Positions 29,201-59,200 are shown, numbered from the stretch's first letter. The stretch: 64,000 nucleotides of DNA from Puniceicoccaceae bacterium (GCA_040830765.1 JBFOMH010000019.1:128001-192000), one strand, 5' to 3'. Translations and numbers: made by a program. Notes: generated by a model not told the origin, from the letters alone.

Positions 29201-32200
29201 GTTACCGGTAACAACGATGTCACCGTCCTCCTCGTCCTGCTGGACGGAACGGGAAATGCGGACCGGGCTGATCCAACCGGCATTAATCATGAACTCGCCG
29301 TCTTCACCGGCAAAGATGATATTGTCGCCGTTACCCACCAGGATCCAATCGTTGCCCCCGACATCAAGGTCAGTCGATTCAGCAACATCTATATCCGTAT
29401 TGTCACCGTCATGGATGATGTAGTCGATACGGCCCATATCGCCAAAGACGATATTGTTGCCTTCTCCACCGTCGATGAAGTCGCCGACGAAGGACTGCCC
29501 ATCGATATCCAGTTCGGTGCCGTCGTTGACGCCACCAAAGATGAGGTCATCGCCAAGTCCACCAAAGATGATGTCGTTGCCACCAATCAGCGGATATTGG
29601 GTAAAGATTTCATCCGGGTTCCTGACAGTGCTGTCGAGCTTGTCTCCGGGGCCTCCATTACCGAGGACAACAACCGCCACGACGACCTGGACGCCTGCAT
29701 CCTCGTCGTTGTAGTAGACGACCTGCCCGCGGTCACCGAAGATGATGTCGTCCGCATCGCCGCCAACAATCTCATCGGAACCCTGGCCACCGAAGATGAT
29801 CAACGGGAGCGTCGAGGAATAAGTACCCCACTCGGCATCGCCGGTACCGGAGGCAAAGACATGGTCGTTATCACTGATATCGAGGTAATCGTTCCACGGG
29901 CCCTGGGTGTTGAGGACAAAGAAGCCGTCAGAGACATCGGCTCCACTGTTGTTGTTTTCGGTAGCGTCGAGGTCGATATAAATCCAGTCGTCGCCAAGGC
30001 CAGTGTTGAGGCTGGTGATGGTCCGGATTCCGGCGCGATAATGAGTGCCGTCGATACGAATGGTATCGGCTCCGAAACCGGTCCAGATAGTGATACCCTC
30101 GGCAAAGTCATTGCCCGTTCCCGTGTCAGCCCAGAAGGTGATATTACCCTCGTAAAGGTCGGCCCAGCCAAAGGCATCATCGCCGCCACCGAGGCCGCGG
30201 ATGACGATTTCCGCATCCGTGGGCTCGTCGCCAGACGGCTTGTCCGTGATGACGATATTATCGTTATCCAGCGTACTGGCTTCGCCACTGACCATGAGGA
30301 GATGGCTGCCCGTACCGGCATCGATATTGAGGTCACCATTGATGAAGTGGAGGTGGCCGGTCAGGAAGTCGATATTGCTGTCTTGGGTTTCGTCAGCGGT
30401 TGAGGAAATGTAGATTCGCTCGTCACCGTCTCCGAGGAAGAGGTTTGTTTCGGCAGTTGTGCCACGGATATTGAGGACATCATCACCGGAACCGAAGCCG
30501 ATGTTGAGCTCATCGATGAAGTAGTAGTTAATGCCATCAATCCGGGTCAGGTAGGTTGCAGCATGGGCCTCGACATCATCGTCCGTGCGCTCGTTGGTCG
30601 AATCCGGTGTGTCGCTGATGTCGTCGAGGACATAGAAGCGGGTCGTGAAGACATTTCCGGCGATGTTCTCGATGGTCAGGACGCCGTTCAGGCTGCTGGC
30701 GCGGAATTCCGGCAGGCCCCATTCGTTGATCAGGTCGGCCAGCTTGCGGGCGACCGATGCATGGGTGTCACCGGCTTCGGCGATCACCTTGAAGGTCAGG
30801 ACGCCCGCTGCGCCAGTCGTTGTGGAAACGGCATCCAGACTGGTGGCGGTATCCAATGTAACAGTGATGTCCAGGCTGTAGACGCTCTCAAGGGTCACCT
30901 GCCAGACTTCACCAGCTTCCGGCTGACCGGCCGCCTCGATGGTGGTGGTGGCGGAGAAGAGCGTGCCGTCGGTGCGGCTGATGAGGACCACGTATCCTTC
31001 AACGGCGACGGAGTAGTCATTACCGGTGCCGTTCAGGCCGTTCAGGTCTTCGGCCAGCTCGGCGGCGATGATTTCCAATGTATCATCAGCGAGGACGGTG
31101 TAGCTGAAGGTGTGGGAGGTGATGCCATCGGTGACGGTAATGCTCCAGACTTCGTCGATTGCCGGTGTGCCCAGCAGGGTGACACTGGATTCCGTCGGCG
31201 TGGTGCGGTCAATTTCCACCTTGCTGAGGTCCGCCTCGGTGCTGCCGTAGTAAACCTCGGTTGAGAAGAGGTCGCCGTTGCGGTGGAAGATGACGAGCTT
31301 TCCGCCATCACCGACAGCCGTGAAGATGTCAGGACCGTTTTCATTGATCTCTTCGGCGAAGGCGGCGGCCAGTCCGGCGTAGGAGGCCGTGTCATCAACT
31401 GCCACTGTAAAGGTATGGGTAATGCCACGGATGGTGATTGTCAGGGTCCACATCGAGTTGAGATCGAACGGCTTACCACCGGCAATAAAGTCAACCAAAG
31501 TGGCACGCGGGATGCGGATATCCGTGATGCCTTCACCTTCTGTTCCACCCAGGGTGACTTCTGTTACCAGAGCCTCGTATTCATCGGCGCCGGCGGAATT
31601 CTCCTCGGTAGTGAGACCGCTGGCGTCGAGGTCATGGATGGTCAGGTCCCGGTGCTCGCCCTGGAAGGTGATGATGAAGGTGCGCTCACCGACCTTGCGG
31701 ATGGCGAAGTTGTCCGTGTAGGGCTTCCAAGTTGTACGGGTGGCAAAGTCAAACTCCGGATCAATGTCGATTGTCGAACCATTCGGGTTGAGGATCGGGC
31801 TGATGGCCTTGTAGAGGTCGAGGGCGGAGGCGTTGTAGTCGATCAGGCCGGTGGTGAAGAGCTCAAATTCGCCGAGCTCGTTTTCGATCCGGAAGGTCAG
31901 GGTGAAGGAACCACCGGTTACATTCGGATTAATGGTAATGACCTGGATATTGTTGATACCTTCATTGACGGTCGATCCGTCGCGGATAGTGCTGATCTCG
32001 ACCGCCACGGAGGCGTTTTCATCCGGCACCAGCCCGGTCGTCTCGGTGTTTTCGGCCCACTGGATTTGCTGCTGGTCAATGCCAGCCATGTCGCCGACGA
32101 ATGTGATGGTGTAGGTGACACTGCCGTTAGCGAAGGAGGCAGTGACATCGATATCCTCGGTGGCATAGAGGGCGCGCAGGCGTTCAGCCATTGCTTCAGC

Positions 32201-35200
32201 AGTGATACCGTAATCGATACGGACTTCCGCCCAGCCTTCGCCACGGACGACATCCCCTGCCTCGAGGCGGGTTTCGAAAATGCCACCCTCGCGATCGATG
32301 ACAATCAAGCGCTCGCCAACAGCAATGGCAGTGTAACGGGCATTGGCATCATCGAGTGGATCTCCACTCAGGGTCACGGAGAGTCCTTCACCTTCGTTTA
32401 TCTGTCTGGCGAACTCGATAACCAAGTCCACGAGTGATTCCGCCGTAGTGGCATTCGTGGTGATTTCGTAATACAGCTCACCGATGCGCAGGCGCCACAG
32501 TTCATCCGTCTGCGGGGTACCGACAAAGTCAACCAGTGTGGTTGTGGCGGTCCCACCATCAATGTCGGCGCTGGCCACCGGAGCCAATGAGGTGTAGGCG
32601 GTGAGGAAGCGGCCCGTCGTATCGGCGATAACCAGATTGTCACCGGAGATGGAGGCAATTACACCAACCAGGGCCAGATCGCCCTCGGCGACTGAGAGAT
32701 TGATGAGGTCGGCAAATCCCTGGGCAATGTCAGAAGCACTGTCCGCGGCAGTGACCTCGAGGAAGAACTCAAAGTTGTTGCTGCCAACTGAGAGGTGCAG
32801 GATCCATGTAGAGCCGGTGACCGGAGTGCCGGTAATGGTCACCTCGATGGGCTCAAGACCGGTATTGATGATGCCAGCACCTGCCGGACGGAAGGCTGGC
32901 AGGACTTCACCGTCGGATGTGAAGTCGGCACCTGTCCGGTTGACGATGTAAAGGTTAATGCCATTGGCGAGGGCCGTGAAGGTACCCGTGAGGTCGGAGT
33001 TGATGACCTCAGCAAGGGCGTCGATCAAGTCATCAAAGGCGTCGAAGTCCACAATGGTCTCATCGATTTCGAAGCCGTACTCTACCCCGTCAAGGGTCAC
33101 AATGAAGGTTTCGCCATTCGTGAAGTCTCCAGCGGCGGTGAACTTGCTCGTCGGTGCATCGCCAGTGATGGCTCCAGAGCCGGCGATGGTTCCGTCAGGC
33201 AGTCCGACTTCAAAGGCGACCTCAAGGCTGCGTCCGGCCGGGTCGACGATGTAGAGGGTTTCCCCGTCAGCAATGGCGGTGAATCCGGCCTGCGTATCGA
33301 GGCTGATCAGGGCAGCCAGGGCGCCGGTGATAGTTGCCAGGGAATCCTGGTTGCCGGCAATCTTGTAGCCGTAGGCAAAAGCGCTTTCCCCGGAGATTAT
33401 ACGGATGTACCAGGTCTGGTCGACAAAGCGGGTGCCGTCGAGGTTGACCACGGCAGCGGACGGAGTCGTGGCGTCGATTTCGACGGTGGCCGTCGGGTAG
33501 ACTTCGAAGGCAGCCGTAATGCTGGTCGTACCATCGCGAACGATGACCAGGGAATCACCATCCATGAAGGCAGTGTATTCACCTGTGACACCGGCATTGA
33601 TCTTGGCAGCGAGGGAAGCTCCTATTTCGGCAGCAGTCTCAAGAATGCCATCGACAAGTGCCACTGTGTGGCGGAAGACCGCACCATCAAGAACAACCTC
33701 CCATGCCTCGCCTTCAACCGGTGTGGTCGTCGAGGTGATGATCACTTCTGAGGTTGTATCGTCGTAAACGAGGGAATTGCGCGGGGTAATGCTGCTGGTG
33801 TCCATTCCATCATCCGGCATAAATGTGCCGGTGAGCGGGACGATGAGGACCGAGCTACCTGCGGCAATAGCTGTAAAGGCAACCTCAACACTGGTAGTCA
33901 CGGAAACATCAATTGCGGCGGCACCAGCCGGGCGGCGGGTTGTAGTGGTGGAGTCGAGGATCGGATCATCCGAGGTCACGAGGAGATCGGCACCATCTGC
34001 TTCCACCTTGAATGGCGTTCCAATGACGGCGTTGAGGGCGGCGGCAAGACCGTCAGCAACATCAATCATGCTGGCCGTGGTAGCGAGGAAGGAGGCAGTG
34101 GCCTCGAAGCCGGCCGAACTCAGCGTCACGGTCCAGGTTTCATCGATGGCTGGAGTGTCGCCGAAGACAATCCGGATAGTTGTGCGGGACTGGATTTGCG
34201 TCGCCAGTTTGTCAGCAATGACCGCTGTATCCTCAAGGACATAGCTGTAGGACTCGCCACCAACCGTGATGGTCCAGGTCTCGCCAATGGTCGCTGTGCC
34301 GTCGAGAGTCACCTCGGTCACTGCATCAGAGAGCACCGTGATGGCATAGCTACCGGCGGAACCGGCGGATGGCGTAATGGAGAAGGTGGTCACGAACCCG
34401 TCTGCGGCCAGTTCTTCAATCTCGAGGATGACCTCACCACCAACAAGCTTGGCCGAGGCAATAAAGTTACTGCTGCCGACATTGATCCGGTCCGCCAGGC
34501 CTTCAGCGATTTCGAGGAGCGGAACGTTTTCTCGAACCACGTAATCGTAGGGATCCTCGTTGGAATCGAGGTGGATGGTCCAGGTCTCGCCAGCGGCGGC
34601 AGTTCCACCGAAGGAGATTTGCGTCGACACGATAACGGCCGACACGGTGCCTTCGTTGACAGTGGTCGGGATAGAGTAGACGGCCGAGGAGGCAGAGGTG
34701 CCAATAATGACCAATGTGTCACCACGGGCAGCGGCTTGGTATTCACCACGGGCGTTAATCAGGTCCGCAATACCAGTCGCCACGTCGGCGAGGCTGTCCT
34801 CAGCCATGACGGTGTAGTCGTAGTTGTACGTACCCAAGGCTGTGTCATCCATAGCGACGCGCCAGACCTCGTTCTCGACCGGCGTACCGGTGAGGATCGC
34901 CACGGAACGATCCGCTGCCGTTGTGGAATCCACACCAAGCGGCGCATCCGGAGCGGCCCGGGAAAGACTGAAGGTGACGAGGAAGGCCTCCGCATGGGAA
35001 ATGGTCAGGCTTTCGCCAGTTGCCACAACGGTGAAGCCGTCATCATTATGGACAGCCGTCTCGATTTCGGTAGCAAGGGTGGCCAGGGAAGTGCTGCCGA
35101 TGGTGAAGTCGTAGCTGTTTACAGTCGCCCCGCGGGTCAGGACGAGCGTCCAGATATCGTCAATCACTGCCGGGCCGATGATATCGAGTGCGGCCTGGTT

Positions 35201-38200
35201 GACATTCACTTCAACGTCAAATCCACCAACCGGGGTGATTTCCATCTTCGAATTGAATGTCACCCCACCCTTGTTGATGACAAGAAGGTCGTCGCCGTTG
35301 GCGATGGCCAGGAAGTTGGCCGAAGCAAGGCTGTTGATGACTTCTGCGAGGCCGGCGGCGATATCTGCCAAGGTGGCATCGTCTACATCAACCGTATACT
35401 CGAAGCGGGTAATGATATCCTCGCCGGAAATATTCCGTGTCAGCAGGACGGCCCAGGTATCGCCTTCGTTGACGACCGTAGCCCCGGCATCACTCAGGGT
35501 CATTGCCGTGCTGGAGGAGACCTCCGTCTTGGTGTAGGTGCCGTTGGCGTCAAGATCAGTGATGGAAATGGCGGATGGTGCAGTGATGAAGATCCGGTCA
35601 CCAGAGGCAATGGCCGAGTAGCCAACGAAATTATCACTGATGTAAAATGCGAGGCCGGCGGCCACCGACTCAAGGATTTCGGCGAGGATTTCTGGTGCAG
35701 TTGTGCCGTCGGTCAGAAGGTCATCGGCAGTCACCGTGTAAAGGACGTCGCTTCCGTTGATCTGGAAGTTCCACAGTTCGGCGAGGGAGATAGTGCCATC
35801 CTCACTGGCAATGGTCACCGTGGCTGGATAGGTGCGGCTGATATCGTTATAAACCTGGACATTGATCACCGGGGTGGCATCGAAGGTGGTGCCGACAGTG
35901 CTGAGGATTATCGAATCGCCATCGGCGAGGGCAGCGTAGTCGGCGCTGTCGGCATTGACCAAGGCAGCAATGGCTTCGGCCAGATCGGCCTTGTTCATGC
36001 CATCAGTCACGGTAACCGGGAAGGAGACCGGGCCGGAGGAGCTTGTTTCAAACTCGAGGGTCCAGATTTCACCCGCCACCGGTGTACCCACGAGGTCAAT
36101 GACGTGGGCTTCCGAGTTATCGGTCGCCGATTCCGTACCGCTGGTGGTGGAACCGTCACTGATGGAAATGCTGGCCTCGATGGCTGCAGAATCGAAAGTT
36201 TCGTCCGCACTGGTGACAAAGAGCTGGTTCCCGACGGCCGAGGCCGCGAAGTCAGGACCGTTATTGAGGGTCCAGGCAAACCAGGTGGCCAATGCCTCGG
36301 CAGAGTCAATCAGGATATCCACAGTTCCCATTGTCTGGGTGGTACCGATGACAACCGAGAGCGCGACTGTAGTGGGCTCTGTGGTAACGATATCAACTTC
36401 CCATGTCGAACCGTCAATCGGCACTCCGTTGAAAGTCAGGGTGATGGAGTCCGCGGTGGTATTGATATCCCCGGCCGAACCCGCGCGGGCGATGGTAGCG
36501 GACGTGTCGAGCACTTCACTACCGCTGGAGACGATAGCCAGACCGTTACCAGCGGCATTGACGCTGGCGGCAAATTCACCGGTGGCATTGATCTTGAAGG
36601 CCAGTGCCTCGACAAAGTCGGCAAGTGTCTGGACGATCGTTCCATCGACATCCTCGTCGTAATCAACCTCGACCATGTAGGTTGTGTTAAGGTCGATGGA
36701 CCAGGTCTCACCCGGCTGAGGAAGTCCCGCGAAGGTGGCGACAACGGCATCGGAAGCGGTAACGCTCGCCGTGGCACCGAAGCGGGTGACGACGACAGAC
36801 GGATCCAGGCCGGCGCCCGTAATGGTGATGTCACTACTTGCTGCGGTGGCCGTGATGGCCGGGCCAAGGGAATCGGTGACCTTCCAGGCCAGGGCGGTAG
36901 CGATCTCTTCCAATGTATCAACTTCCACGCTGTCGACTGTTTCCCCGAAGGTGACACTGACAAAGTCGGTATCATTGAGGTTCAGGGTCCAGATATCCAA
37001 GGCGCGCGGAGCGGCTGAAGCGGAGGTATCGAGGCTGATTTCGGCATCGGTGCCGGACACGGAAGTAACCGTTCCACCACTGGATGGAATCTCGATGCTG
37101 AAGCGGGCATTCACATCGGTACCAGTAGTGCTGAAGATGGAGAGGATGTTTCCGGAAAGGACCGTGCTCAGGCCAGCGACACCATCAACGGAGTCAGCCA
37201 GTGCGTTCGCCAGGGACTCGAGGGTATCTCCCTCGGCAACCGTAATGGAGTGCAGGACGGACTCTGTGGTTTCATTCTGGCCCTCGAACCATGTCTTGAG
37301 AATCCAGGTATTACCCGGTTGTGGCACACCGGCAAGAGTCAGGACCACGGCATCCCCGCTGGCCTGCTCGGTAAAGGTGCCTTCAACATCTGTCTGCAGG
37401 GCGATCCAGGAACTGGTGACGAACGGTTCGGCGGCCCGGTCGACGATAAAGAGCGTATTCCCGTCAACAAAGGCAACGAAGGTGGCAAGACCATCGGTGT
37501 TGTTGATCATGTGGGCGAAGATTTCGGCAATGGTGGCGGGGCTGTTCGCATCCACGGTGTAATCCGGATCATCCTCCGTAAACGGATCGTATGTATCACC
37601 GGCCAGAATCTGGAACTCGAAGGATCCTTCAACAGTGGTCAGGCGGATGGCCCAGGTGTCACCAGTGACAACCGTTCCATCAAGGAAGAGCTTGGTTACT
37701 TCTGCCTCGGAACCAGCAGTGACAAGGTTGCCGGCCGGCAGAACGGAGGCTTCCGCAGTAAAGGCCACGTCGTTGTCGAGTGTCAGGACATTGGCCAAGG
37801 CATCTGCCGTAAAGCTATCAAAGACCGGATCCAGATCGCCGAGAAGAAGTAGTTTTTCACCGAGCTTGGCAGCCACCATGTCGAGCGTGTCACCCTCGAG
37901 GACCTTGTAAGATACCGCTGTCACGGCTGCACCCTCCTGCACGCGGAGGAGCCAGGTTTGCCCGGCAACTGCGGTTCCGTTGAGGGTCAGGTCGATTCCG
38001 TAGGTAGTACCGGAGGAAGCACTGGAGGCCGAGCCGTCCGTGGAATTGGTGGTCTGGAGGTTGAAGGAAGCACTGGTGGCACTGGCGATGACCATGCTGT
38101 TACCGGTCGCTGCAGCGGCAAAGTCACCAAGGACATTGATGTCACCGGCGAGGATGGCGACGATTTCAGCAACCGACTGCGCCACCTCGGCGGTATCCGG

Positions 38201-41200
38201 ATCGGCATCATGGTCCACACCGAGGATGGTGTGGCTGACCGTGGTCGAGCCGTCGAGGACGATTGACCAGATATCACCGATTGCGGGTGTACCACCGAGC
38301 GTGAGGGAAATGGAGTTGAAGGTCTGCTGGGTGAAGATGCTGCCCACCGGCTCAACCTCAACACCCGTGACAAAGGCGTTTACGGAGTTTTCAAGGGTCA
38401 GCTCATTGCCGATGGCCTCGGCGCTGAAGGCGGAGATAAAGGTGTCTGCCGAGCTGGTGATGGCCAGTTCGAAGGCAGCGGCAATGGCAGCAAGGTCGTC
38501 ACCTGCCTGGACAGTGTACTCAATGGTCTTGATGGTGGTGAGGACCTGCAGGCGGAGGACCCAGGTCTGACCTTCAATAACCGGACCGAGCAGGGTCAGG
38601 GTAGCGAGTGTTGAGTAACCGGTGGCGTTGTTGTCAGCATAGCCATTGGTGTCCACTCCCGCCTTGACCGATAATGGAGTCGGCAGGTTGCTGGCTATGA
38701 GGATAGTGTCACCGGAGGCACTGGCGGTAAAGCCGGCCAATGCTTCAACTTCGGCTGCCAGCGCGGCCGCGATGGTGGCGATACTGTCCGGTGTTCCGGA
38801 ACCGGCATCAAGGATGGTGTAACGGACAGTGACGGAGTTATTGAGCGTCAGGGTCCAGACATCACCAATGACCGGGTCACCTCCAAGGCGGAAGTTGACC
38901 GCATTGCCGGCCTCCGGCTGAACGGTGATGGTGCCACCGGTTCCAGCGCTGTCGGCGAGCTGGATTTCCAGCGAAATTTCCGGAGCGGCGGCGCCAGCCA
39001 TGACATTGATGACGATAAGGGTGTTGCCGACCGCAATAGCCACCTTGCCCGGTTCATTGGCATTGATCTCAGCCGCGATGAAGGCGGCGATGTCAGCCAA
39101 GGTGGTAGTCGTCGTAACTGGGAAGCTGCTTAAGAAGGTATCGATGGTGAAGTCCCACTGGTCTCCATCAACCGGTGTGCCGGTGAGGACGATGGAGGAA
39201 GTGGCGCCATCAACCAGGTCGAATGTACCTTCCGGTGCCTGGACCGGACTGGTGACACTGAAGGAAACCAGGTAAGCGGCTCCGGATTCGCTGACGATGA
39301 TGAGCACGTCACCCAGTGAGGTGGCGGTAAAGTCATCGTTAGCGTTGATGAGTCCGGCAAGGTATTCGGCGATTTCGGATACTGAGGTAAGAACGCCGCT
39401 GCCGGTATCTTCACCCACCGTGTAGAAGAAGGCCGGGAGATCATCGATAACGACATTCCAGGTATCTCCGTCGATCAGGTTGCCACTGAGACGGACCATG
39501 GTAGTGGTTGCGGTCTCAGAATCGATGGTCGGGTCGGTGATCCGAACCTTGTAAGTACCCGTGGCGGCCTGGACGAAGATTGTCTGGATTTCAGAAATGG
39601 ACGGCATGCCCAGACCGGTCAGGGATTCACCGGTCAAAATTCCGGTGCTGTTGCCGCTTTCACCGCGGTCGTCGAGGTAGAGGACATCTTCATCCGTGTC
39701 GTCACCACCGATAATGACCAACAGGGCGCGGACCGTGTCGAGTTGTGAGTCATCATTGCCATCAACGGATTCCGTGGTGGTGGTGAAGCCAAAGACATTG
39801 GGCAGGGCCTTGCTGCCGACATAGAAGGTGTCTGCTCCGGTCTGGCCGTCGATGATGGTGTGGCCGTCGATGGACTCAACGATAAGGCTGTCATCACCGG
39901 CACCGAGGTAGATGTTGGTCGCGCCGGCGTGGGTCGACTTCACGGTGAAGTTGTCGTTACCGGTTCCAAGATAGATATTCAGGACCTCAAGGTCGCGGTA
40001 CTCGATACCGGCCGGCAAGGTGCGACCAGCGATGACCGTTTCAGGCGCCATGCCCATGCCGGTCAGTTGATCCGCCGTCAGGATAGCGACATTATCGGCC
40101 GGGCTGTTGTTGTGATAGACCGTCATGGTATCGACCTGGTCCGCCTCATCGACACGTGTGTTCAGGTTGACCGGGCGGTAGAAGTACTCATCTCCCGGAC
40201 GCGGTTCATTGAACTCACGGATTTCGATAATGGAGACGGTTCCGACAGGCGTGATCTGGACGGAGGTATCGAATTCCTGGGCCTCGAGATTGACGATGGC
40301 AACCTGGTTGCCAATCGCCACGGCAGTGAAGGTAACCACACCGAAGGCACGGACATGGGCAGCCAGGGCGTTCGCTACATCCTCGATCGTGTCACCTTCC
40401 TGGACCACATAGGAATGGGTGGTGGAGAAGGTTCCATCGTTGAGGAAGATGGACCAGACTTCACCGGCGAAGACCGTGTTGGTCCCGGGAACGGTGTTGG
40501 CATCGGCAAAACCACTCAGGGTCACGACCGAACCAACGCCGTCAACGGAGCTCGAGGCCGCGTTTTCAAGGCTGAAGCTGATACCGGCACGGTTGACAAC
40601 GGTGAGTTTTCCGTCGGCAACGAAGGCGGTGAATTCCTCGTCAGCCGCGACATTGATGCTGGCTGCCAAGGCAGTCAGGATAGCATCCGCTGTTTCCCCA
40701 TCTGCGGCGACATAGGTGTGGACGCTGGTTTGTTCACCGATTCTCAGTAAAGTGGTGTAGAGCTGTGTCAGTCCTCCTGTCAGGGCGACTGGAGTTGCAA
40801 TCTGTCCAGTCTGGGCAGTTGGGATGACAAGGGATTCCGTGATGCGGATATCCGGTTCGAAAGTGGCCTCACCAGAGGACTTGATGGTGTACTCAGGCTC
40901 AGTCGGTTCGGTAAAGTCAGTCCCGTCGGTATTGATGATAATGAGGACCTTGCCCTCGGCATAGGCCGCATGGCTGTCGGCACCGGAATTAATGGCTTCA
41001 GCGAGGGCTTGGGCGATATCGAAGGTCGTGTCGCCGGCCAGGACGGTGTAATTATAGTCCTTGGTTGTCGCCTCACCGGGCAGGGTCACTTGCCAGACAT
41101 CATCCACAACCGGCAATCCGGCAAGGATGGCACTGCGGACCGGTGCATTGGCATCGTCAACGGTAACCGCGTAATTGCCACTGCCATCGTCGGTGCTGGC

Positions 41201-47200: not shown

Positions 47201-50200
47201 CAGCTCGACGGTCCAGATGTCACCGATGACCGGCGTACCGAAGAGGTCGATGGAACCGGTGTAGGCCGGATCCGGATCCGGGACAACAACGGTGTCGTTC
47301 GGTGAGATTTCGAAAGTGGTTGAATTGGTATTGCCGGCAACATTGTTGATGACCAGGGCCACGCCAACCGAGAGGGCCGAGAGATTGCCAGCCGGATCAG
47401 CCTGGACCAGAAGGGCCAACTGCTCAGCGATGGTTTCGAGTGTGTCGTCCTCAACGATGGTGTAACTGAAGGTCTTGTCCTCGCCGTCAATGTCGAGGTT
47501 GAGGCTCCAGGTGTCCCCTACCCTGACATCGCCACTGAGGATGACCGTACTGGTGTCTTCGGAGGGCCATGGGGCATTGAAGGTGACATTGTAACCCGAG
47601 ACGATCGGCTTGAAATTGGACGGAATCTCATCGAAGAGGCTGAAGGTAAGCAGATCCAGCGGGTCACCGGGTAGCATGGTCACGGTGACATCGGAAGGGC
47701 CGGAGGCATCGGTGAGAGTAAGTTTCCAAGCGCCAGCGAGGTCGGCGGCGTCGTCCGGATCATCGAGGAACTCAAAGGCGACGACGCCCCAGTCGATACC
47801 GAAGAGATAGGAGAAGTCCTGGACGGGTGTTCCGCTGATGGAGTCACTGCCATTGCCACCGGAGCGGACAACTTCCACGCGGAACGGAACAACGGCATTG
47901 CTGTTGCCGGAGTCGACCACACTGATCCGCAACTTGGCGTTGCCCAGGATATCAACGAAGCCTTCAGCAGTGAAGACGTAGTCCTCGATACCGGTATCGT
48001 CATAATCGCCGGTATTCAGCTTTTCAGCCCATTCGCGGACAATCTTGGAGAGGGCCTTGTTGTCTTCGCCCACATCATAGACGATATCCAGATCGGACGT
48101 GGCATCGTCCCCGAAATTGAACATGAGGGTCCATGTTTCCGTATTGGCTGCAAAGCCACCAAGACTGATTGTCGCCTCAAGCCACTCGATGGTGGTATCG
48201 CTATCGCTGTTTACATTCGCGAAACCAACCAGATCCTGATCGGGTGTACCGCTAAAGAGGACATCATCGGATGTGACATTCCCAGTGCCCCTATCGAGAT
48301 CAACCTTGAATGGCTCATCCCCGCCAATGGAAAGGATTTCCTGGGAGATGCCAAGGACGTCGAGGAACCGATCGAGGGCCGGGCCTTCAAGCCACGTAAA
48401 CTCGAATGGGAATTCGTTCATCCGCGGATCGAATCCAGGACGCTCGCCGTAAATGTCATTGAAGTGGAATGACTCACGGTCGGTCATGACCGCATTGCCG
48501 TTGTTGTCGATGCTGATGCCGGTCACCGTTCCATCGGCCTGTGGATCATTGGTTTCCTCCGGCAGGCGGAATGGATCGTTGAGGAAGCGTTCCTCACCAA
48601 CAAGGGCACCGCCGACAATGCTGAGCGGACCACGGATGCCGTTAACCCGTTCCTCGAAGGCCGGGAAGACAAGGGCATCACTGCCATCAATCACGTTGTC
48701 GTCGATAGCCTGTATCCAGACTGTGCGGACAACATCCCAACCGTAGTCGGTGGCATCGGCATCCCCAGCGGGAACGAAGCGCAGTTGCGGAATGATGGCA
48801 GCATCACCAACCGGTGCGACAATGTTCGTCGGGCCAGTGCTGGCGCTACTATTCAGGCCTTCGAGTCCCACGAGGACGCGTGCATCGATGTCCTTGTTCT
48901 GGGATTCGGTGGCATTGCTGATGGTGATGCTTCGGCCTTCGACGAGGACGTCGTACTGGCTCAGGTCAAGCTGGTTGGCCAGCATCATGGCAATGGTGGA
49001 AAGGGTATCACCGAACTTGGTTGTGTATTCAACGCCGGTGCCCCATGCGGCATTCGGATTGGAACTGATGTCGCGCAGTTGCAGGGTCCAGATTTCGCCA
49101 GCAGTAACATCTCCCTTGAGGGCCACCTCGACCGATTCGAAGAAGCTGGTAGTCGGGGTTTGGGAGATGCGGTTGACTTCCACCTCGCCCCATCCAAGGG
49201 CCCGGCGACGGTAGTCGGAATCACTGCCTGTGTCGACATCGACACCAATCTCAAAGGCGGTAAAGAATGGCGTGTAGTCAGCCTCGTTATCCGTCGTGAT
49301 GAGGATTTGTGGCGTTTCCCGCATGGAAATACCGGCGGAAGCCCATGTTGTTCCACTACCCTTATCCATGACTGCCGAGAAGATGACTGTCTGGTCAGGA
49401 TCGAGGACAAGGATGGTCTCGCCATCAGCAACCGCCTTATAGCCGGCCGCTGTGTTACCGTTGATCAGGCTGGCCAGCCCAAGCGCCACATCAGACAGGG
49501 TATCGGTGGCCGTGGGCTCATAGGTAAAGACCGTGTCGCTGCCATCATTGAGGGTCAGGCGCCAGAAGGTGCCCTGGTCAACCGAACCGGAGAGGACAAG
49601 GGTCATGCCCGGATCAAGGTCCGCGGTGTAATCAATGCCCACAGAGGTGTTCAAGATGGTGATCTGGCCCGCAATCGAAGCGGCAACTTCTGTTAGCGTC
49701 TGTGGCGTGGTGGCATTGATGAAGAGACCGACGACGTCGCTCTTGGTGGCATGCAAGGCTGCGAACTCGTCCGAATTAATTCCGCCATCGGAAAGCTTTT
49801 CATAGACCATGTCACGGAAGGCATCGACGCTGATGGTGCTCTCCGGACCAGTCAGGGTCATGAACCACACCTGGCCTCCTGCCGGTGTGCCATCGAACTG
49901 GACAAGGGTGCGGTCTGTGGCAATACGGACTTGCTCGGCAAGGTTTTCGCCAAATGCCTCATCCGCATTGAAGGCCTCATCCGCATTATAGGTCCGGGTT
50001 TCAACCGGCAGGATATTGACGATTACCTCATCCGTCGGGTTCTTCGTAAGGACGATATCCCAGGTATCGCTGATAAGGTCGCCATCGTCATTGAGGAAGC
50101 TTGAATACGGCAGTGGCAGGGTTTCCTCGGAAATCCGGTAGGTGATGTCGTACTTGCTGTCGAAGAGCGGGACTTCACTCCAGTTGTCAAAGCCGGATGT

Positions 50201-53200
50201 CGAGACATAGAAGGCTTGGCTGGTCGGATCGTAGTCGATGATTGTACCGGCCTGCCCGGCGGCCTGCCCTTCTACAACCTGGATACCTCGTCCGGTCAGC
50301 TCGATGGCGGCAAGATTCGTCGGGTGACCCGGGATGGAAATGATCAACTCGTAATCGAGTCCCGGATAGATGCCGGCATACTGGTATTGCGGGTAGAACT
50401 TGTCGTAGGTGACGACGGAGGATACCCGGATGAGGAACGGTTGTGCCGTGGTCGGCGCTGGAATCAGGTACTCGAGGAAGGGATCATATGGGCTGTTGCT
50501 TCCCTCGTCGACCGGGACAGAGGAATCCGGGACATACTTGGAGGAAGCCAGAATCGAGCCGCTGGTCGGATTGATCAACTCAATGACCGGGCTAATGGTG
50601 TAGTTGACCGTTTCGAGAATCGGCACCGTCTTGTAGACCGGGATGAATCCGAAGAGGTAGTAATCGACGACTTCCTCGTAACCGGTCACGACCTGGAAGC
50701 TGCCCTTGACCAGTTTGGTGTTGTCGATATCGAAAACGGCAAAGACATCGCCACCCCGTTCGGCGCGGAAGGCAAATGGGTTGAGGCCATGACCACCACC
50801 GGGCTTGGTCAGGTCCGGCGCACCGGATGAGCCGTCCTGGTCCTCGATGGTGATGGAAGTATCGGTGGCACTGGCCTTGTAAAGTCCGAGTGCATCCACG
50901 ACCTTGGCCAGTTCGTCCGCCACCGTCTTGAAATTGAGTTCACCGAGCTGTGTTCCCTCCTTGAGGCCGCCCGGGACTTCCCAGAAGTATTCCACGTTAT
51001 TGAGGAAGACCGAGAAGACCTGACCGGCGGAGACATCGCGCAGACCAGCATCCCCTTGCAGGTCGAAGGTGACCGAGAAGAAGTGTGGATCGCCGTCTCC
51101 GGGCCACGTTACAGCCGTGGTAAAGTCTTCTGCACCATTGGAGCTGTCCGGATCGACGAAGGCATGGACGCGGACCCATCTCAGGTCACCGAGTTCGACC
51201 AGGTTACCGTCGGAGCGAACGACCTTTACGGAGCCGTCGGCCTGGGCGGTTGCCGAAAGCACACCGCTGAGCCCGGTCGATGCATCATCAAGGGCCGAAT
51301 CGAGGAAGGCCTTGACGGCATCCGCGATACTGGTGGAAGCGCCGCTGGTGGTGCCAACGGTAAAGGACGGATCCGGGGTTTCCCCGTTGTAGGACAGGAT
51401 AAAGGTGTCACCTGCGTAGAGTGGTGTGGCATACCCGGCCACATCCGGATGGATGATCATTTCCCAAGGCAGCTTGACCGTACCGGAAAGCGTGGCGCTG
51501 GCAGAGACATCGACCGGATCGACAAGCGGTGAAGTGACGGTAAATGAGCCTGGGCCGAAGATGAAGAAGGAAGTACTGGTGAGGGAAACCGTGGAGTAAT
51601 CACCCGTTACCAGGGCCTTAAGGCTGGTTGTCACGGAGGAAAGGCTTGGATTGGTGCCACTGACACCACTCTTCAGCGGGACAGGATAGCTCGGGTCCGT
51701 GCCGGAGCTCAGGTCAAGGCTCCAGGTCTGGCCTTCATAGACGACTCCACCTAGTTCAACGAGATAGGCACGGACACTGGTACCCGACTTGACATTGGTG
51801 TCTGTCGTACCGTTCAGATCCTCAGTGAGGGTTGCCGTGAAGGCGGCCAGGCCGGAGTCGCGCCAGATCGTTAGAATCTTGCTTGATGAGTTGTAATCAG
51901 CCGAGTAGATGGTGCCATCGATTGCGGTTTCCAGGGCGCCTGCCTTGGCATCGACTCCGGTGAGACTGTTGGAGGTAATGTTGATATTACCGATGCCGGT
52001 CAGGGCCAGTATCCAGTCGTCGTTATTGTCTGCCTCAAGGCCACTGCTGAGGTTCAATGTCACATAGGCCGTGCCAGTAGCGTCCAGTGTACCCCCTATC
52101 GGCTGGGCATCGACCTCCAGGTACTGGAAGCCGCGGTTGCCGGTCCAGGTAGACTTGAAGACAAAGGTGATCTTGCCGTTAGAGGAAGCCGTGACCGAGG
52201 TGAATGGATCGCTCGGACCGCTGAGAATATTAAACTTGTTGGCAAGGTCCTCGGCCACGCCGATAACTTCATCGGGCAGTCCGGAATTGATGGTATTGAG
52301 CTGCGTCAACAGGCCGACATTACTGGTCTTTTCAATGTTGGCCACCTTGAGTCTCCAGTCCTCTCCCTGATGCGGCGCGCCCCCAAGGTCGACAGTCAGG
52401 GTGGTCCAATTGATTGCGGTATAGGTCGCGCCAACTGGCAGGGAACCGGTCTGACCGGCAGGGGTGCCGGAGATCTTGGCACTGCCATCCGGATTGATGC
52501 CGGTTGTGGTAATGGAGACCGAGACACCGGCAGCAGCCACCGCATTGAAGGTCACCTTGTCGGCTGATCCGCCAACACTGGAAATGATGCCACTAAAGGC
52601 GGCTGCTCCAAGGGCGGTGCGGATGCCTGCCGCAACCTGATCGGGAGATGTGTAACCAGTAAGGATGCTTGCTCCGGTAGGTGTGGAGGTTGAGTTGATG
52701 GTTACCACCCATGTATCGGCGGCATCGATACCAGAGCCATCAATGTCAATCTCGACATTGCCAAAGAGGATATCGGAGCTTCCAGCGGCATTCTTGGCGG
52801 TTGTTGTCCGGCTGACCGTTCCCGCATTATTCACGGTATGGACAAGCCCGTCGACACTGCCGGCCTCACCACGACCCTTAAGGACAAATCCTCCGCCGAG
52901 GTTGCTCACGGTGAGCGTATTTGTGGTGGCATCGACCGAGTAGCCTTCGATGAATCCGTCGGTCTGGGCATCGAGGATTTCCTGGGCCAGCGCGGCGGCG
53001 ACACCGGCTGCTGAGGAATTGGTGCCATCGACAGTGACGATGAAGTCGCGGTAACCCAGACCCAGCTGATAAGTGTCGCCCACCTCGACCTTGTCGGTCA
53101 ACTGGAAGGTAACCGTGCTGTAATACTGGGAACCATCGGAGCTGCCGGATGCTCCTTCGACCTCGTCCGGATTGGCATCCACGTGGAACTTGTAGATGTC

Positions 53201-56200
53201 GTAGGACCAGTCACCGGTACCGACCACCTTGACATACGGTGTGGTGTAGTCGATTCCCGGACGATCACCCGGCTCGCCAGCGAGGTGGATGTTGCCCACG
53301 GCAGGATCGTAGAAAGTGAAGAAGCTCGAACCGTCGGAACCATCGCCATCCAGTTCCTGCCCGGTGGAGGAATCAATGGCGCCGCTCTGGTTGTTACCGA
53401 ATTCATCTTCGAGCACCGGCTCGGGAGCGAAGATAAAGGAATCCTCGGCATGCTGTTCAATGGAGAAGTGCAGTTCGTAGTCGACCCCTTCCGGGACCCC
53501 GTCGATACCGACAGGCCAGGCTGCCGTGACCTCAACGTAGTACGTACCCGGTGTCTCAATGAAGTAGGACAACTGGCTGTCATAGAAGTAGCTGCTACCC
53601 GGATCCAGCGTCCAGCTGAACCAGGAACCTTCCTCGAGGAGGGTCGGCGTGCGGGGCTGATCCGGATCCAGTGGATCGACCAGTTCGTACAGCTTGAGCT
53701 GGCTGGCCCAGAACTGGGAATCGCCGATATCGAATCCGTGGTCGATGTCGAAGAAGACTTCCAAGCCCTTGTATCCAACGGTGCTACCGCTGTTCTCGGA
53801 CTTGTAGGCCTCCACCGATGCCTCGTACATTTCCTCGGTGACCTCGAAGGAATAGAAGTCCGCATTGCCGTCACCCGTGCCAAGAATGGTAGTGTGCGGC
53901 AGGAGATTGGACTTGTAGATATTGGCCACGAAAGTGGTATTCCACTTGGAGGTATCGATATCCTGCGGGATGAAGACAGAGTCATGAACCTCTTCCTGTT
54001 CCTCGCCGATGGAGGTGCCGAAGTCGCCCACAAAAATGACCGCATAGGTGCTGCCATCGGAAACCAGCTCGACCTTGATGAAGATACTGAAGGTCTCGCC
54101 GCCACCGGTCTTGTCGACTTCAATGTATTCGCCGGAAGATGTGGCCGTGTAATCGGTCAAGGCATCAATTTGTCCCGCAAGGGCACTCGCAATTGCGGTA
54201 AAGGAGGTGCCGATGATGGGTGTTGCTGTGCTGACAGAGGTACCCGTTTCATCAACGAGGTGGGCCGTCCAGCGCATGTTCGTGGTCGGTTGCTCAGGCT
54301 GGATTCCGTCGAGGGTCGCATTGGTATCTTCCGGAGAGAGACCGAGGCGGAAGCGGGCGAGGTCAGTCTGGGTCGGGAAGCCATTGCCAAGGAGGACCAA
54401 CTCCGTCGGCTCGATGACATCGGTTGACTCGAGGGACTGGATAACGAGTACGCCCGGAGCGTCGTTGTCGGCAACAATGACGTCGATGGAGTTTGGTACG
54501 GTGACTTCACGGTTTTCACCAACCACATACTTGTACTCGACGGTGTTGAGGTCTTCGCCCGCCGTCACGGAAACATCGCTCTGGGCATCGACCTCGGCCT
54601 CAGCAGGCAGGGTGATGACAAGATCCAGCGTGAAGGCTCCAAAGCGCTCGACCTGGATGCTGGCCGTGTCGTCGTCCAGTTCGGTAGTCCCGCCATCGTT
54701 ATAGGTAACGGAGGCTGAGTAACCGGTGAAGGCGTCAATCTGGGTTTCCAGATCGTCAACGATGTCCTGCAAGGTCTCATCCTCACCGACGGTATAGCTG
54801 GCCTGCACACCCCAACCCATCGCAGTGAGGTCGATGGTGTACGTTTCGCCTTCTTCCGGTGCGCCGTTGAGGCTGACCGATTGGACATCCGGGCTGGCGC
54901 CGAGGATGAGCGTCCAGGCCGACCCCTCGGCATAGGCGAAGGTATCATTGGTGAAGTCGACGTGGGTCAGCTGGTAAACAAGCTTGGCGTAGTGGGTCGG
55001 GCTTTCGAGGGACTCACCCGTGCTGTGGGCCTTGGCGCTGCCTCCGGAATCCGTAACATCGACTTGGGAAGCAGACTCGGCCAGCAGGACATCCAAGCTG
55101 AATGGCGTGCCATCGGTGGTGAAGATGACCACGGATTCGCCAGTTGTGCTTCCATCTATCTCAGCACTGCTCTGGACGGTGCTACCGGTCACGGAGATGC
55201 GGATTGAGAAGTAATCCGTGCCCTTGTTGACCGTAAATTCAGTACCCGTCGGATCGGTTGCGGTAAAGTCGGTCAACTCGTCAATCTTGTCGGACAACTG
55301 GGTTGCGATGTGACTCAAGTTGTTGCCGCTTTCCACGGTGTAGGAAACCTCGATGCTGTTGTCCAAGGTCACGGTCCAGACATCTCCCTTGAGCGGGGTG
55401 CCCTTCAATTCGACATCAGCGGTGGTGAACTTGGTGGCAAAGCGGGTTCCACTGAGGTTGATGACGTTGCTCAGCCCATTGGCAACATCCTGCAGGGTCT
55501 CTGCGGAGGCCGTTGTGCCCTGGCGGGTGTAGCGGAATTCCGTGTCATCGAGGGTGACAATCCAGACCGAGCCGGTAACATCATCAACGGCTGTGTCATC
55601 AAGGGTGACATCCGCCACGTTCCAGGCCTTGACGCTGTCGGCCGTGACGATCTGGAAGCCGAGGGCAGTCTCGCCACTGAAGGTGGCCCGGCCCTCGGAC
55701 TCACCAGAGGCGTAGAAATTGACCTTGAGGAACTTGTTGTTGGAACTGGAAAGTTCGATCGATGTGCCGTCCAATGAGGCGTCGACACCATCCTGCCCGT
55801 CAATCTTGCCGACCAGGGCGGAGGCGATCGTGGCGAGTGTATCATCAACATCAACTGTATGGAAGAAGGCCCGGCCATTGATCGTAACAACCCAGGTTTC
55901 CCCTTCTGCCGGTGTGCCGGCAAGGTCAATATCGACAGCCGTAAACGGTGTCAGCAGGTTGCCCTGGAAGGCAGGACCAGTGATTTCCACCGTATCCGTT
56001 CCGGAATCACCTTCATAATCGGTGTCGATGTTGCCATCGATGATATTGGCGATGCCGTCGACGACGTTGTTCTTTGTCACGCCGAGGAAGAACTCCATGT
56101 CGCTCTCGGATATGCGGTGATTAATCCGGGCGTAGTGTGTCCCCTCCTTGGCGTTGTCATTGACGGCACGGACAACCACTTCCTTGGGCTGATCCCAATC

Positions 56201-59200
56201 CGTCTGGTCGAAGGTCACGGTCACGGCACCTTGTACCGGAACGCCGTCGACCTCGGTGATGGTCTGGGTATCACCGTCAATTTCCGTAATGAGGACATTG
56301 CTGTTCGGAGTGAGGGTGATTTCGACCTGACCGGTCGGCCGCTTGGTCAGGACAATCCAGTAATTATCAGACTGGAGGAATCCCGGTGCATCTGGATCAG
56401 AGCCGGCTGCGACGGTGAATTCCCAATCGCCGCCTTCCCCGACGATCGGGGAGAAGATGCTTGCCGAGTCCACACTGGTACCATCGTGACCGGCAATGAG
56501 GACGGCTGCCGAATCGTCATCGACCACAGTGGCCACGACCCCAAGGATGGCCAATCCGTCATAGGCGCCACCATCAGCGGCACTGGCTCCCTGCTGGGTG
56601 CGGTGGACAATGGTGTACCCGTTGGTTCCCTCGGCCAAGTTATCAGCCGGGGCAAAGACAAAGACTTCCTGCGGAACGAACCAGTCCTGGCGGGTAAAGG
56701 TCAGGGTGAGGCCGTTCTCGTCCGGTGTGCCCGAGTCGCTGGTGGACAGGCCAACGCCCTTTCCACCTGCGGCGAGGACACTTTCACGGATGGCCACCGG
56801 AGCAGCGGTGACAAGGACCGTTTCTTCGGGTGAACGGGTCAGGACGACCTGGTAGGACTGGACTACCAGTGCGACTCCGCCACTTTCAAAGACCCGGATC
56901 GGGCCCATGGTCGAAAGGACCACTACATCCGCTTCATCGTTATCGCGCACATCAGCCGAGACATCCCGGACAAAGACGTTCTTGTATTCCGGATCGTCAG
57001 TGGTTGTGGTCTGGATGACAAGGCCGCTGTGCCCCTCGAGATTGTTACTGACGACGGTAACCTCGCGGCCGCCACTGCCACCGATGCTGAAGTTGTCGCT
57101 ACCCAGCCCGCCAACAACTTCGAGGGAAACTTCCTCGCTGGTACTCTCGATGAAGAAGCGGTCATTCCCCTCGATGGCGTCGACGACGATGCGCTCAAGC
57201 CCGCTGTAGGTAACAAACAGACCGGCCCCGTAGACTCCCTGTTCGTTAATGACAAAGTCATCACCAAACTCAGTGCCAATCACGGTCAAAGTATCGAATC
57301 CGTCACCACCCTCAATCCGGACCGGGGCATTCACGGTAAAGGAAATGAAGTCAGCACCCTGGCCGCCGTTGATGTTGGTGAACGGTGCCTTGGGATCGTT
57401 CGGATCGACCTTGACGAAGGCCCGGACGGTAAAGGTGTCATCATCCTCATCCCCAAAGAGGAAGAGCTCGGCCTTGTTGCTGTAGACCGTAAAGTTGTCA
57501 TTGCCGGTGCCGCCGAAGAGGGTCGAGCTGAAGCTGATACCATTGGACAGGAAGCCGCGGGTAATCTGGGTGGTCTCGAAGTAGTCTTCCTCGGCGAGGC
57601 CATTATCAGGATTGTTGCCATCCCGGAAGGATTCGAAGACCTGTCCGATCTGGAAGGTGTCGTTACCGGCATCACCGAAGACCGTGACCGGGGCCAGGTT
57701 GTCATCAAGGACGAAGACGTCATCGGCATCCCGGCCAAAGACTTCGACCGCACCATTGATGTCGTAGTCGTAGTTGATGCGTTCGATGACACCACCGGGG
57801 ACCGGTTCGCGGTTTTCATCAACCTCGATAGCGGCAACCATACCCTGGCCAATCTCCTTGTTGGCCCGGAAGAGGAAGTAGTCGACTTCGTTGGTGCCGT
57901 AGATGCGCAGGCGGTCGATGCCCGGATCGCCGCGGGACTCGTCGAAGACATTGATACGGGAGGAAATGCGCCCAGCGAGGCCGATTTCGTATTTGTCACT
58001 GCCCTGCTGGCCATGGAGGGTCAGTTCGCCGTCGATACCGCTTTCAAAGGTCTGCTTGCCACTGCGGTCGTAGTTGACCCGAATGATGTCGTTCCCGTTA
58101 CCGGCACTGACAGTAGTCGTACCGGAAATGCTACGGATGTTCACGACATCGTTAACGCCATTGATAACCGGTGATTCATCGCCCATGTCGATGGTGGTGA
58201 CACCGGTGTGGGTTGAATCGAGGAAGAAGGCGTTGTCATTGTCGCTGAGCCAGATGCGCAGGAGTTCGAAGCTGGTGTAGTTGACTCCCAGGGTCATGCC
58301 CATGCCGAGGATTTCGTCACGGGTCAGCTCGCCTGCCTCACGCTCGGTATCACCGGCATCGTAAATCTTCAGGGTATCGGCGGTCCCTTCCCCACCCTCG
58401 ATGGTCAGGCGTCCAAGGATAGCATTGACGTTGCCGTCGAGGGCATCGATCAGGGTACTGGTCTGGCCGAGTTGTCCGGCTGTGCTACCGACACGGACAG
58501 TGTCATTACCATCACCGGTGGAGAGGTTGAGATTCCCGTCGACGCTTTCGATATTGATGATGTCATCACCACCGAGACTGGTCAGGTTCGTGATCGAGTT
58601 ACCCGCGTGGGTGCTCTCCACGGTGAAGTAGTTCCCGACACCATCAAGATGGATGTTGAGCACTTCCAGCGTGCTGTAGGTGACGCCGCCGTTCGGGCCG
58701 AAGAGCAGATTGCTGGTACCGGCCACGTTGTTGCGCAAGGTCGTGGCGGTAAGGGTACCATGATTGATCGGAATCAGGTCAGTATCCCCGGAGTCGTCAA
58801 AGGAGACGATGTCCTCGTCAAAACTGCCTTGGCCGTTGATGGTCATCGGTGCCCTGATATTGTCGAGAACACCCCGGACAAAACCATCGGCTGACGGATC
58901 ATCGACACCATCAACCGTTGCCGTACTGCCGACGTTGACAATGTCACTGCCCGCACCGGTGTTCAGGATGGTGTTGGTATGGATAGCCTGGACAGCGATC
59001 CGGTCGTCACCGCCCCGGGTATCAATTTCCACATTTTCAACACCCGTATGCGTGATGAGCATCGAGGAGACAGTACTGGCTTCAATCTGGCCCTTGGTGT
59101 CCAGAACCGGCACTGTCAGGGTCATCCAGTCGGCAGAGTCGGTACCGGTTACGACGAGGCGGTCACTGCTGTCAGAGACGGTACTGTCGATGTGGACCTG

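Follow-up and report, generated by a model that had tools for sequence, protein, structure and literature searches.

In RTX adhesins such as AhLap of Aeromonas hydrophila, a beta-roll or immunoglobulin-like (Ig-like) domain is split and another domain buds out of it (PMC12077191; bioRxiv 10.1101/2025.09.30.679566), and such splitting can be nested, a beta-roll being divided by a vWFA domain that is itself divided by a 9-kDa insert (PMC12077191); in the RTX domain of CyaA, folding is templated and proceeds from the C- to the N-terminus (PMC10511787). Here we describe a gene, gene A, that lies in a 64,000-nucleotide stretch of DNA from a Puniceicoccaceae bacterium (GCA_040830765.1 JBFOMH010000019.1:128001-192000; hereafter the window), the whole gene content of which is two giant minus-strand genes, A and B. 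The reading that we favour, with a probability of roughly three in four, is that the gene A product is a hub with three closed garlands, in which one solenoid of ~116-amino-acid (aa) units is re-assembled across three inserted arrays of repeat modules and serves for display on the cell surface.

Gene A resembles the RTX adhesins in that a beta-roll or Ig-like domain appears to be interrupted, with the chain returning to finish the fold, in the nesting of such interruptions, and in RTX repeats near the C-terminus: Pfam HemolysinCabind matches lie in its C-terminal third (E 1e-39, eight stretches) and at ~aa 1150, and a C-terminal RTX nonapeptide beta-roll is present as in the adhesins. Split domains, likewise a feature of the adhesins, are found at three solenoid sites and in the Ig-like, excursion and EVQ domains described below. 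The adhesins carry one ~17-28 kDa ligand-binding domain per split, whereas gene A carries 12-27 domains (~300 kDa) at each of three sites; moreover, nearly all repeats of gene A lie within loops, in place of the linear string of extenders seen in the adhesins. An earlier interpretation of this DNA, made from the sequence alone (the sequence-only reading), held that no described protein has this layout, which was too strong a claim given the nested split beta-rolls that RTX adhesins have at single-domain scale (PMC12077191). For kilobase-scale arrays inside a split solenoid we found no description in the literature reached by our searches, and a term search of a giant-gene preprint (10.1101/2023.11.21.568195) gave no mention of such arrays. 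The principle is already known, while the scale, the nesting at three levels and the graded series seen among homologues are new relative to the literature reached.

The core of gene A is built from a ~116-aa solenoid unit of an unnamed family, which we traced with a hidden Markov model (HMM) made from tandem arrays of the intact unit in other proteins. Three units of gene A match this model over its full length (aa 1658-1801, 1806-1935 and 2161-2289; 61-91 bits), and the split units match it piecewise:

23237..64000, minus strand: gene A, one open frame of 13,587 aa, its 5′ end outside the window
58196..59029 (aa 1658-1935), minus strand: two intact solenoid units, unit HMM 72 and 91 bits
57077..57520 (aa 2161-2308), minus strand: last intact unit and the GSDNFSIGG rung, the N-side edge of site 1, HMM 2-113, 61 bits
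48608..48649 (aa 5118-5131), minus strand: isolated solenoid rung RVNGIRGPLSIVGG, found with a block HMM
39605..40138 (aa 7955-8132), minus strand: middle solenoid piece, HMM 40-116 (66.5 bits) and 1-110 (69.3 bits)
29741..30535 (aa 11156-11420), minus strand: C-side solenoid, HMM 86-114, restarting at GINYYFIDELNI

The motif GSDNFSIGG occupies aa 2300-2308 (57077-57103). The middle piece comprises the C-part of the first split unit and the N-part of the next; it begins at aa 7955 (~40138) with QVDTMTVY...LTGMGM...GIEYRDLEVLNIYL and ends with ...LTGLGM, the last residue of which is aa 8132 (39605). DGINYYFIDELNI begins at aa 11155 (30538), and RTX repeats (Pfam) follow downstream of the C-side solenoid. 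In HMM positions the pieces are complementary: the first split unit is covered by ~17-36 at the end of the N-side piece, 39-53 in the isolated rung and 55-116 at the start of the middle piece, and the second by 1-83 at the end of the middle piece and 86-114 from GINYY... onward. Between the pieces are gaps of 2,809, 2,823 and 3,023 aa (8.43, 8.47 and 9.07 kb). Translation of gene A and the unit HMM confirm that the fragments stand where the sequence-only reading had placed them, in unit order and with three gaps of similar size.

A search with aa 7940-8140 against 1.84 billion representative proteins gave 932 relatives at E ≤1e-3, of which the best 150 were kept; the homologue series used below holds 200 stored sequences, 93 of them with the rung block (see below) and a few being mutual duplicates. 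Among the relatives, P0038 and P0021 (each ~7,700 aa) have the same rungs and flanks as gene A, joined by connections of 36 aa, ~38 aa and ~95 aa (the last being one small alpha/beta domain) as against ~3,000 aa each in gene A. With P0172 and P0174 they form a group of uninterrupted-core relatives, which share with gene A the solenoid units, the order of the flanking rungs and the downstream RTX region, and differ from it in having 36-47, ~38 and ~95 aa at sites 1, 2 and 3 where gene A has 2,809, 2,823 and 3,023 aa. Because the same solenoid is uninterrupted in these relatives, gene A can be regarded as an extreme form of the split-domain design of RTX adhesins.

Used as a phmmer query against gene A, the contiguous 671-aa stretch P0038 aa 4890-5560 gave three collinear matches:

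P0038 query 1-152: gene A aa 2172-2316, 93 bits, E 6e-31
P0038 query 219-416: gene A aa 7945-8156, 77 bits, E 4e-26
P0038 query 474-663: gene A aa 11148-11366, 111 bits, E 3e-36

The short rung went unreported in this search with the P0038 stretch. A block HMM for the rung (26 columns, 17 homologue rows, window rows excluded) gave a single match in the 5,628-aa interval separating the anchors, at aa 5111-5136, with 32.6 bits versus 5.1 bits for the best of 300 shuffles. The collinear matches and the rung score show that the fragments align to solenoid units above chance, a point on which the sequence-only reading had staked its case.

That reading had also suggested looking for homologues whose inserts are short or missing at these positions, and such homologues are found for all three sites:

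Site 1 (32 informative homologues): 41-47 aa in 5; 419-676 aa in 10; 1,856-3,249 aa in 17
Site 2 (71 informative homologues): no module in 42; 1-3 modules in 22; 6-11 in 5; 25 in 2 (gene A and locus L003)
Site 3: 2 aa; 114-138 aa (one EVQ domain); 226-249 aa (mostly two); 308 aa (three)
Site 3, longer forms: 607 aa (three EVQ domains and four modules); 3,023 aa in gene A

At site 1, inserts of the 419-676 aa class consist of two to three copies of an Ig-like domain (Ig/Calx-like; see below) with zero modules, and those of the 1,856-3,249 aa class contain 7-17 modules. For site 3, landmark pairing mis-paired locus L009 (3,945 aa; ~395 aa with three EVQ domains on direct reading) and probably also P0006 (2,029 aa), and in one size series it overstates insert 3 by ~10 aa. 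The idea of selection on loop length is not supported by this comparison, as site 2 ranges from 0 to 25 modules in the 71 homologues; loops of nearly equal size are confined to gene A and L003, whose 25-module array is shared through common descent.

The layout of gene A recurs at 11 genomic loci, with identities to gene A as follows:

N-side piece: 66-89% (6 loci)
F region: 43-65%
Middle piece: 44-63% (six loci)
Rung: 77-88% (5 loci)
Arrays: 23-38%

The rung and array values are from the best BLAST pieces, a method that is unreliable for the other regions, where out-of-register pieces win (for the N-side piece of L002 and L005 it gives 22-27%, versus 77-89% in direct alignment). On these comparisons the core pieces are conserved far better than the arrays, and the split pieces are kept by selection. 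The collinear short-insert homologues and the better conserved core uphold the claim that the arrays sit inside solenoid units and are not spacers between independent domains; at the level of sequence, we take it as established that the arrays have been inserted in loops of a conserved solenoid.

The 11 loci (L001-L011), which are 46-68% identical to the gene A F region, come from metagenome-assembled genomes whose labels span ten different groups: Burkholderiales, Gammaproteobacteria, Desulfuromonadales, Verrucomicrobiota, Limnocylindria, Acidoferrum, Longimicrobiales, Coriobacteriia, Planctomycetaceae and Nitriliruptoraceae are among the labels, a spread that gene transfer or mis-binning could explain. 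In their source databases the relatives are named ‘Ca2+-binding RTX toxin-like protein’, ‘large repetitive protein’, ‘calcium-binding protein’ or ‘hypothetical protein’, and an ESM Atlas search with the F region gave no usable match. A fourth insertion hot spot lies at the position in the second unit equivalent to site 2: it is empty in gene A, holds two modules in L004 (aa ~4654-4764) and in L005 (aa ~4593-4703), and in L009 (aa ~3900-4090 of the main frame) holds an Ig-like insert of ~190 aa.

Each of the three inserts includes a small domain that is itself in pieces:

48650..57076 (aa 2309-5117, 2,809 aa), minus strand: insert 1, with Ig/Calx-like copies, 12 module matches and other domains
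56933..57049 (aa 2318-2356; HMM match aa 2328-2359), minus strand: insert 1 start piece, Ig/Calx-like HMM 107-144 of 144
49964..50086 (aa 4639-4679), minus strand: Ig/Calx-like HMM 19-59, a copy split by the three modules after it
48671..48748 (aa 5085-5110), minus strand: insert 1 end piece, Ig/Calx-like HMM 81-106, directly before the rung
40139..48607 (aa 5132-7954, 2,823 aa), minus strand: insert 2, an excursion domain split by modules
30536..39604 (aa 8133-11155, 3,023 aa), minus strand: insert 3, a split EVQ domain and modules

‘Calx-like’ is our own label for an Ig-like domain. Pfam family PF03160 (Calx-beta) has no match in gene A aa 2301-2690, and precomputed annotation places it in two homologues only. 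The break in this domain at insert 1 is complementary, with HMM 81-106 at the end of the loop and 107-144 at its start, where complete Ig/Calx-like copies adjoin the start piece; the copy before the rung stops at HMM 105-109 in 76 of 93 homologues. Besides gene A, the start piece was detected in 3 of 14 homologues scanned (6.6-8.4 bits), and it is conserved in sequence in all seven aligned rows. Because in loop 1 the last strands of one domain type stand at the beginning and the first strands at the end, the ends of the loop may form a clasp, by a complementation within that type that would resemble circular permutation. Elsewhere in insert 1, non-module domains at 53111-54010 and 49901-50800 (aa ~3330-3630 and 4400-4700) gave only a weak PKD match (E 0.019).

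At site 2, a conserved excursion domain of ~170 aa is divided in gene A into aa 5132-5275 and 7930-7954, its halves separated by 25 modules (aa 5277-7924), and is contiguous in short-insert relatives (in the consensus and in L009 and L010). Insert 3 opens with the first strand or strands of EVQ, a small alpha/beta domain (HMM positions 1-33 at aa 8136-8168), which are followed by 24 module matches (aa 8167-10590), the rest of the EVQ domain (positions 12-89 at aa 10572-10648), a complete second EVQ copy (aa 10684-10791) and three further modules (aa 10838-11138). In homologue P0176 an EVQ domain is likewise split, around 20 modules. Judged from sequence, every array emerges from a smaller and likewise divided domain, the nesting being three levels deep.

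The modules that fill the arrays were found with an HMM of ~97 aa, which gives 64 copies in gene A (window 30572-55948), all confined to the three inserts, with 12, 25 and 27 per insert. Their pairwise identity averages ~25% and reaches 44% at most. In a comparison of 55 modules we found neither loop-specific clades nor recent tandem duplication, the nearest neighbour lying in the same loop for 24 of the 55 and being the directly adjacent module for a single one; the modules are old. A predicted structure of the module (pLDDT, the predicted local distance difference test, 91.4) was matched by Foldseek to outer domains of a podovirus nozzle, phage tail sheaths and flagellin D2/D3, with template-modelling (TM) scores of 0.56-0.72 and E of 7e-5 to 1e-3, and the module profile matches residues ~85-167 of sheath proteins at E 3e-5 to 1.4e-4. 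In sequence and in predicted fold, then, the module is akin to the outer inserted domains of tail sheaths (phi92 gp130 and PhiTE); it differs from the sheath proteins in occurring as 64 tandem copies in a giant cellular protein that has no sheath core domain. Homologue P0176 is labelled ‘phage tail sheath gpL-like’ by JGI. Partial LysM (PF01476) matches, summed over the modules, fall on a helix ...GDTL.DIA..LA..IN; the best stretch covers positions 1-17 of the 43-position profile and none passes alone. No Big/Ig family of the kind that forms the Ig-like extender strings of RTX adhesins appeared in Pfam/NCBIfam scans. The sequence-only reading had called these repeats stalk modules, which is not borne out by their resemblance to inserted outer domains of tail sheaths and flagellins; on the predicted models, they are decorations, unlike extenders.

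For the core, AlphaFold2 was applied to the natural short-insert homologue P0038 (aa 4890-5560) with 34 alignment rows, that is, 41 minus seven: six N-side rows were removed, among them that of gene A, which had been aligned one unit out of register, as was the gene A F-region row. The model has a predicted TM score of 0.70 and pLDDT >90 for residues 230-671, a confident stretch that runs through site 3 and its inserted alpha/beta domain. The best fold matches in the PDB are RTX beta-roll blocks of CyaA (7usl, 6sus and 7rah), which have glycine/aspartate-rich turns in common with the core of gene A.

The gene A product is a giant RTX-type protein that is probably secreted, and re-assembly is the most economical reading of its split pieces. 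On this reading the chain would leave the solenoid at three loop positions in two consecutive units, exiting first via a small split domain (Ig/Calx-like at site 1, excursion at site 2, EVQ at site 3) and then traversing an array made up of 12 to 27 diverged ~97-aa modules, in all ~2,800-3,000 aa with the base domains, before coming back to complete the split domain and enter the next rung. The four solenoid pieces would stack as one continuous solenoid in the mature protein. As in the inserted outer-domain fold class, the module termini are expected to lie close together, so that the arrays would form closed garlands on a rigid hub and not an extended stalk. If folding proceeds from the C- to the N-terminus, as in other RTX proteins, each rung would have to wait for ~3,000 residues, and templated folding of the CyaA type may, by analogy, offer a mechanism by which each rung awaits its partner. 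The presumed function would be cell-surface display of a large set of domains for binding or decoration. In its most detailed form, to which we give even odds, this reading predicts a compact hub of four solenoid segments with three ~300-kDa loops, the 64 sheath-like modules hanging as garlands and C-to-N folding pausing three times; each loop would be closed twice, by the adjacent solenoid rungs and by the small split domain, and at site 1 the second closure would be a circularly permuted clasp, with the last Ig-like strands supplied from the loop start and the first strands from the loop end.

Several observations weigh against re-assembly. Confidence values and fold matches are the basis both for the continuity of the solenoid and for placing the module termini close together. 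Residues 1-220 of the P0038 model, which include sites 1 and 2, have pLDDT mostly below 50-60, with two to three alignment rows there, and the core's fold matches in the PDB are low (TM only 0.15-0.3), CyaA having nonapeptides where gene A has a 116-aa unit. The insert 1 start piece is a weak match in gene A (2.7 bits). The isolated rung scores -1.1 bits with the generic unit HMM, which does not single it out, so that the significance of the rung is that of family-specific conservation. As the loci carry unexplained labels of many phyla, the series may partly mix paralogues and transferred genes. Secretion genes are absent from the window, and the 5′ end of gene A is missing.

The low confidence at sites 1 and 2, met even in a short-insert homologue, would also suit a beads-on-a-string arrangement, which we consider unlikely, in which the arrays were inserted in an ancestral solenoid whose pieces now fold separately, the 14-aa rung lying in a linker or in the excursion domain. 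Contact between the pieces of gene A is an inference, the 178-aa middle piece is long enough for a few rungs alone, and a 3,000-aa loop is entropically costly to close. However, separately folding beads would leave unpaired solenoid edges and half-domains, which would be expected to decay or aggregate, whereas conservation is among the highest in the rung and its flanks (77-88%; 32.6 versus 5.1 bits) and the break points complement each other at three nested levels, with 76 of 93 homologues retaining them; the modules, too, belong to an inserted-domain class. Still less probable, in our estimate, is pairing in trans, with split rungs and half-domains complemented between copies of the protein or with the product of gene B to give a lattice or fibre at the surface. 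Pairing of split elements across chains is conceivable in principle, and the gene directly downstream is another giant RTX gene, but no observation points to such pairing, the contiguous-core homologues imply an intramolecular ancestral state, and the units were not seen in gene B in the searches made, among which there was no scan of gene B with the unit HMM. Resemblance by chance, or an assembly artefact, might be suggested by the shortness of the fragments and by the length of a gene repetitive at the protein level, but is for practical purposes refuted by a rung score far above the shuffles, three collinear P0038 matches at E <1e-25, the recurrence of the layout on contigs independent of one another (11 loci, dozens of proteins), a frame open without interruption over 40.7 kb, and the absence from gene A of long near-identical DNA repeats (the longest is 150 nt at 72%), which makes repeat-collapse misassembly unlikely.

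The RTX repeats are the main family matches of gene A, Pfam and NCBIfam giving otherwise only weak LysM, PKD and DUF7355 matches; its first 1,000 residues (aa 1-1000; 61001-64000) abound in beta-strand-like sequence and have no Pfam/NCBIfam family match. The second gene begins 227 nt downstream:

3-23009, minus strand: gene B, at least 7,669 aa, its 3′ end outside the window

The N-terminus of its product reads ...LERLEPRLLLSG, and its Pfam matches are RTX repeats (20 stretches), FG-GAP, LRR and Golvesin_C. The G+C content of gene B is 0.49-0.55, versus 0.56-0.59 in gene A.

If the core of gene A does re-form, then within the reach of our searches no other single fold would tolerate domain insertions nearly so large, and the protein would provide a test case for the folding of repeat proteins across kilobase-scale sequence separations, as well as for RTX folding during secretion and for the shielding of closed loops from mechanical force. 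The graded series of homologues, in which inserts at shared positions span 40 aa to 3,000 aa, shows how such architectures grow. More generally, the arrangement offers a reading frame for a widespread, unannotated family of giant ‘hypothetical’ proteins, in which repeats would be seen as decorations budding from a conserved hub and not as a stalk, a view that changes how such genes are dissected and modelled.

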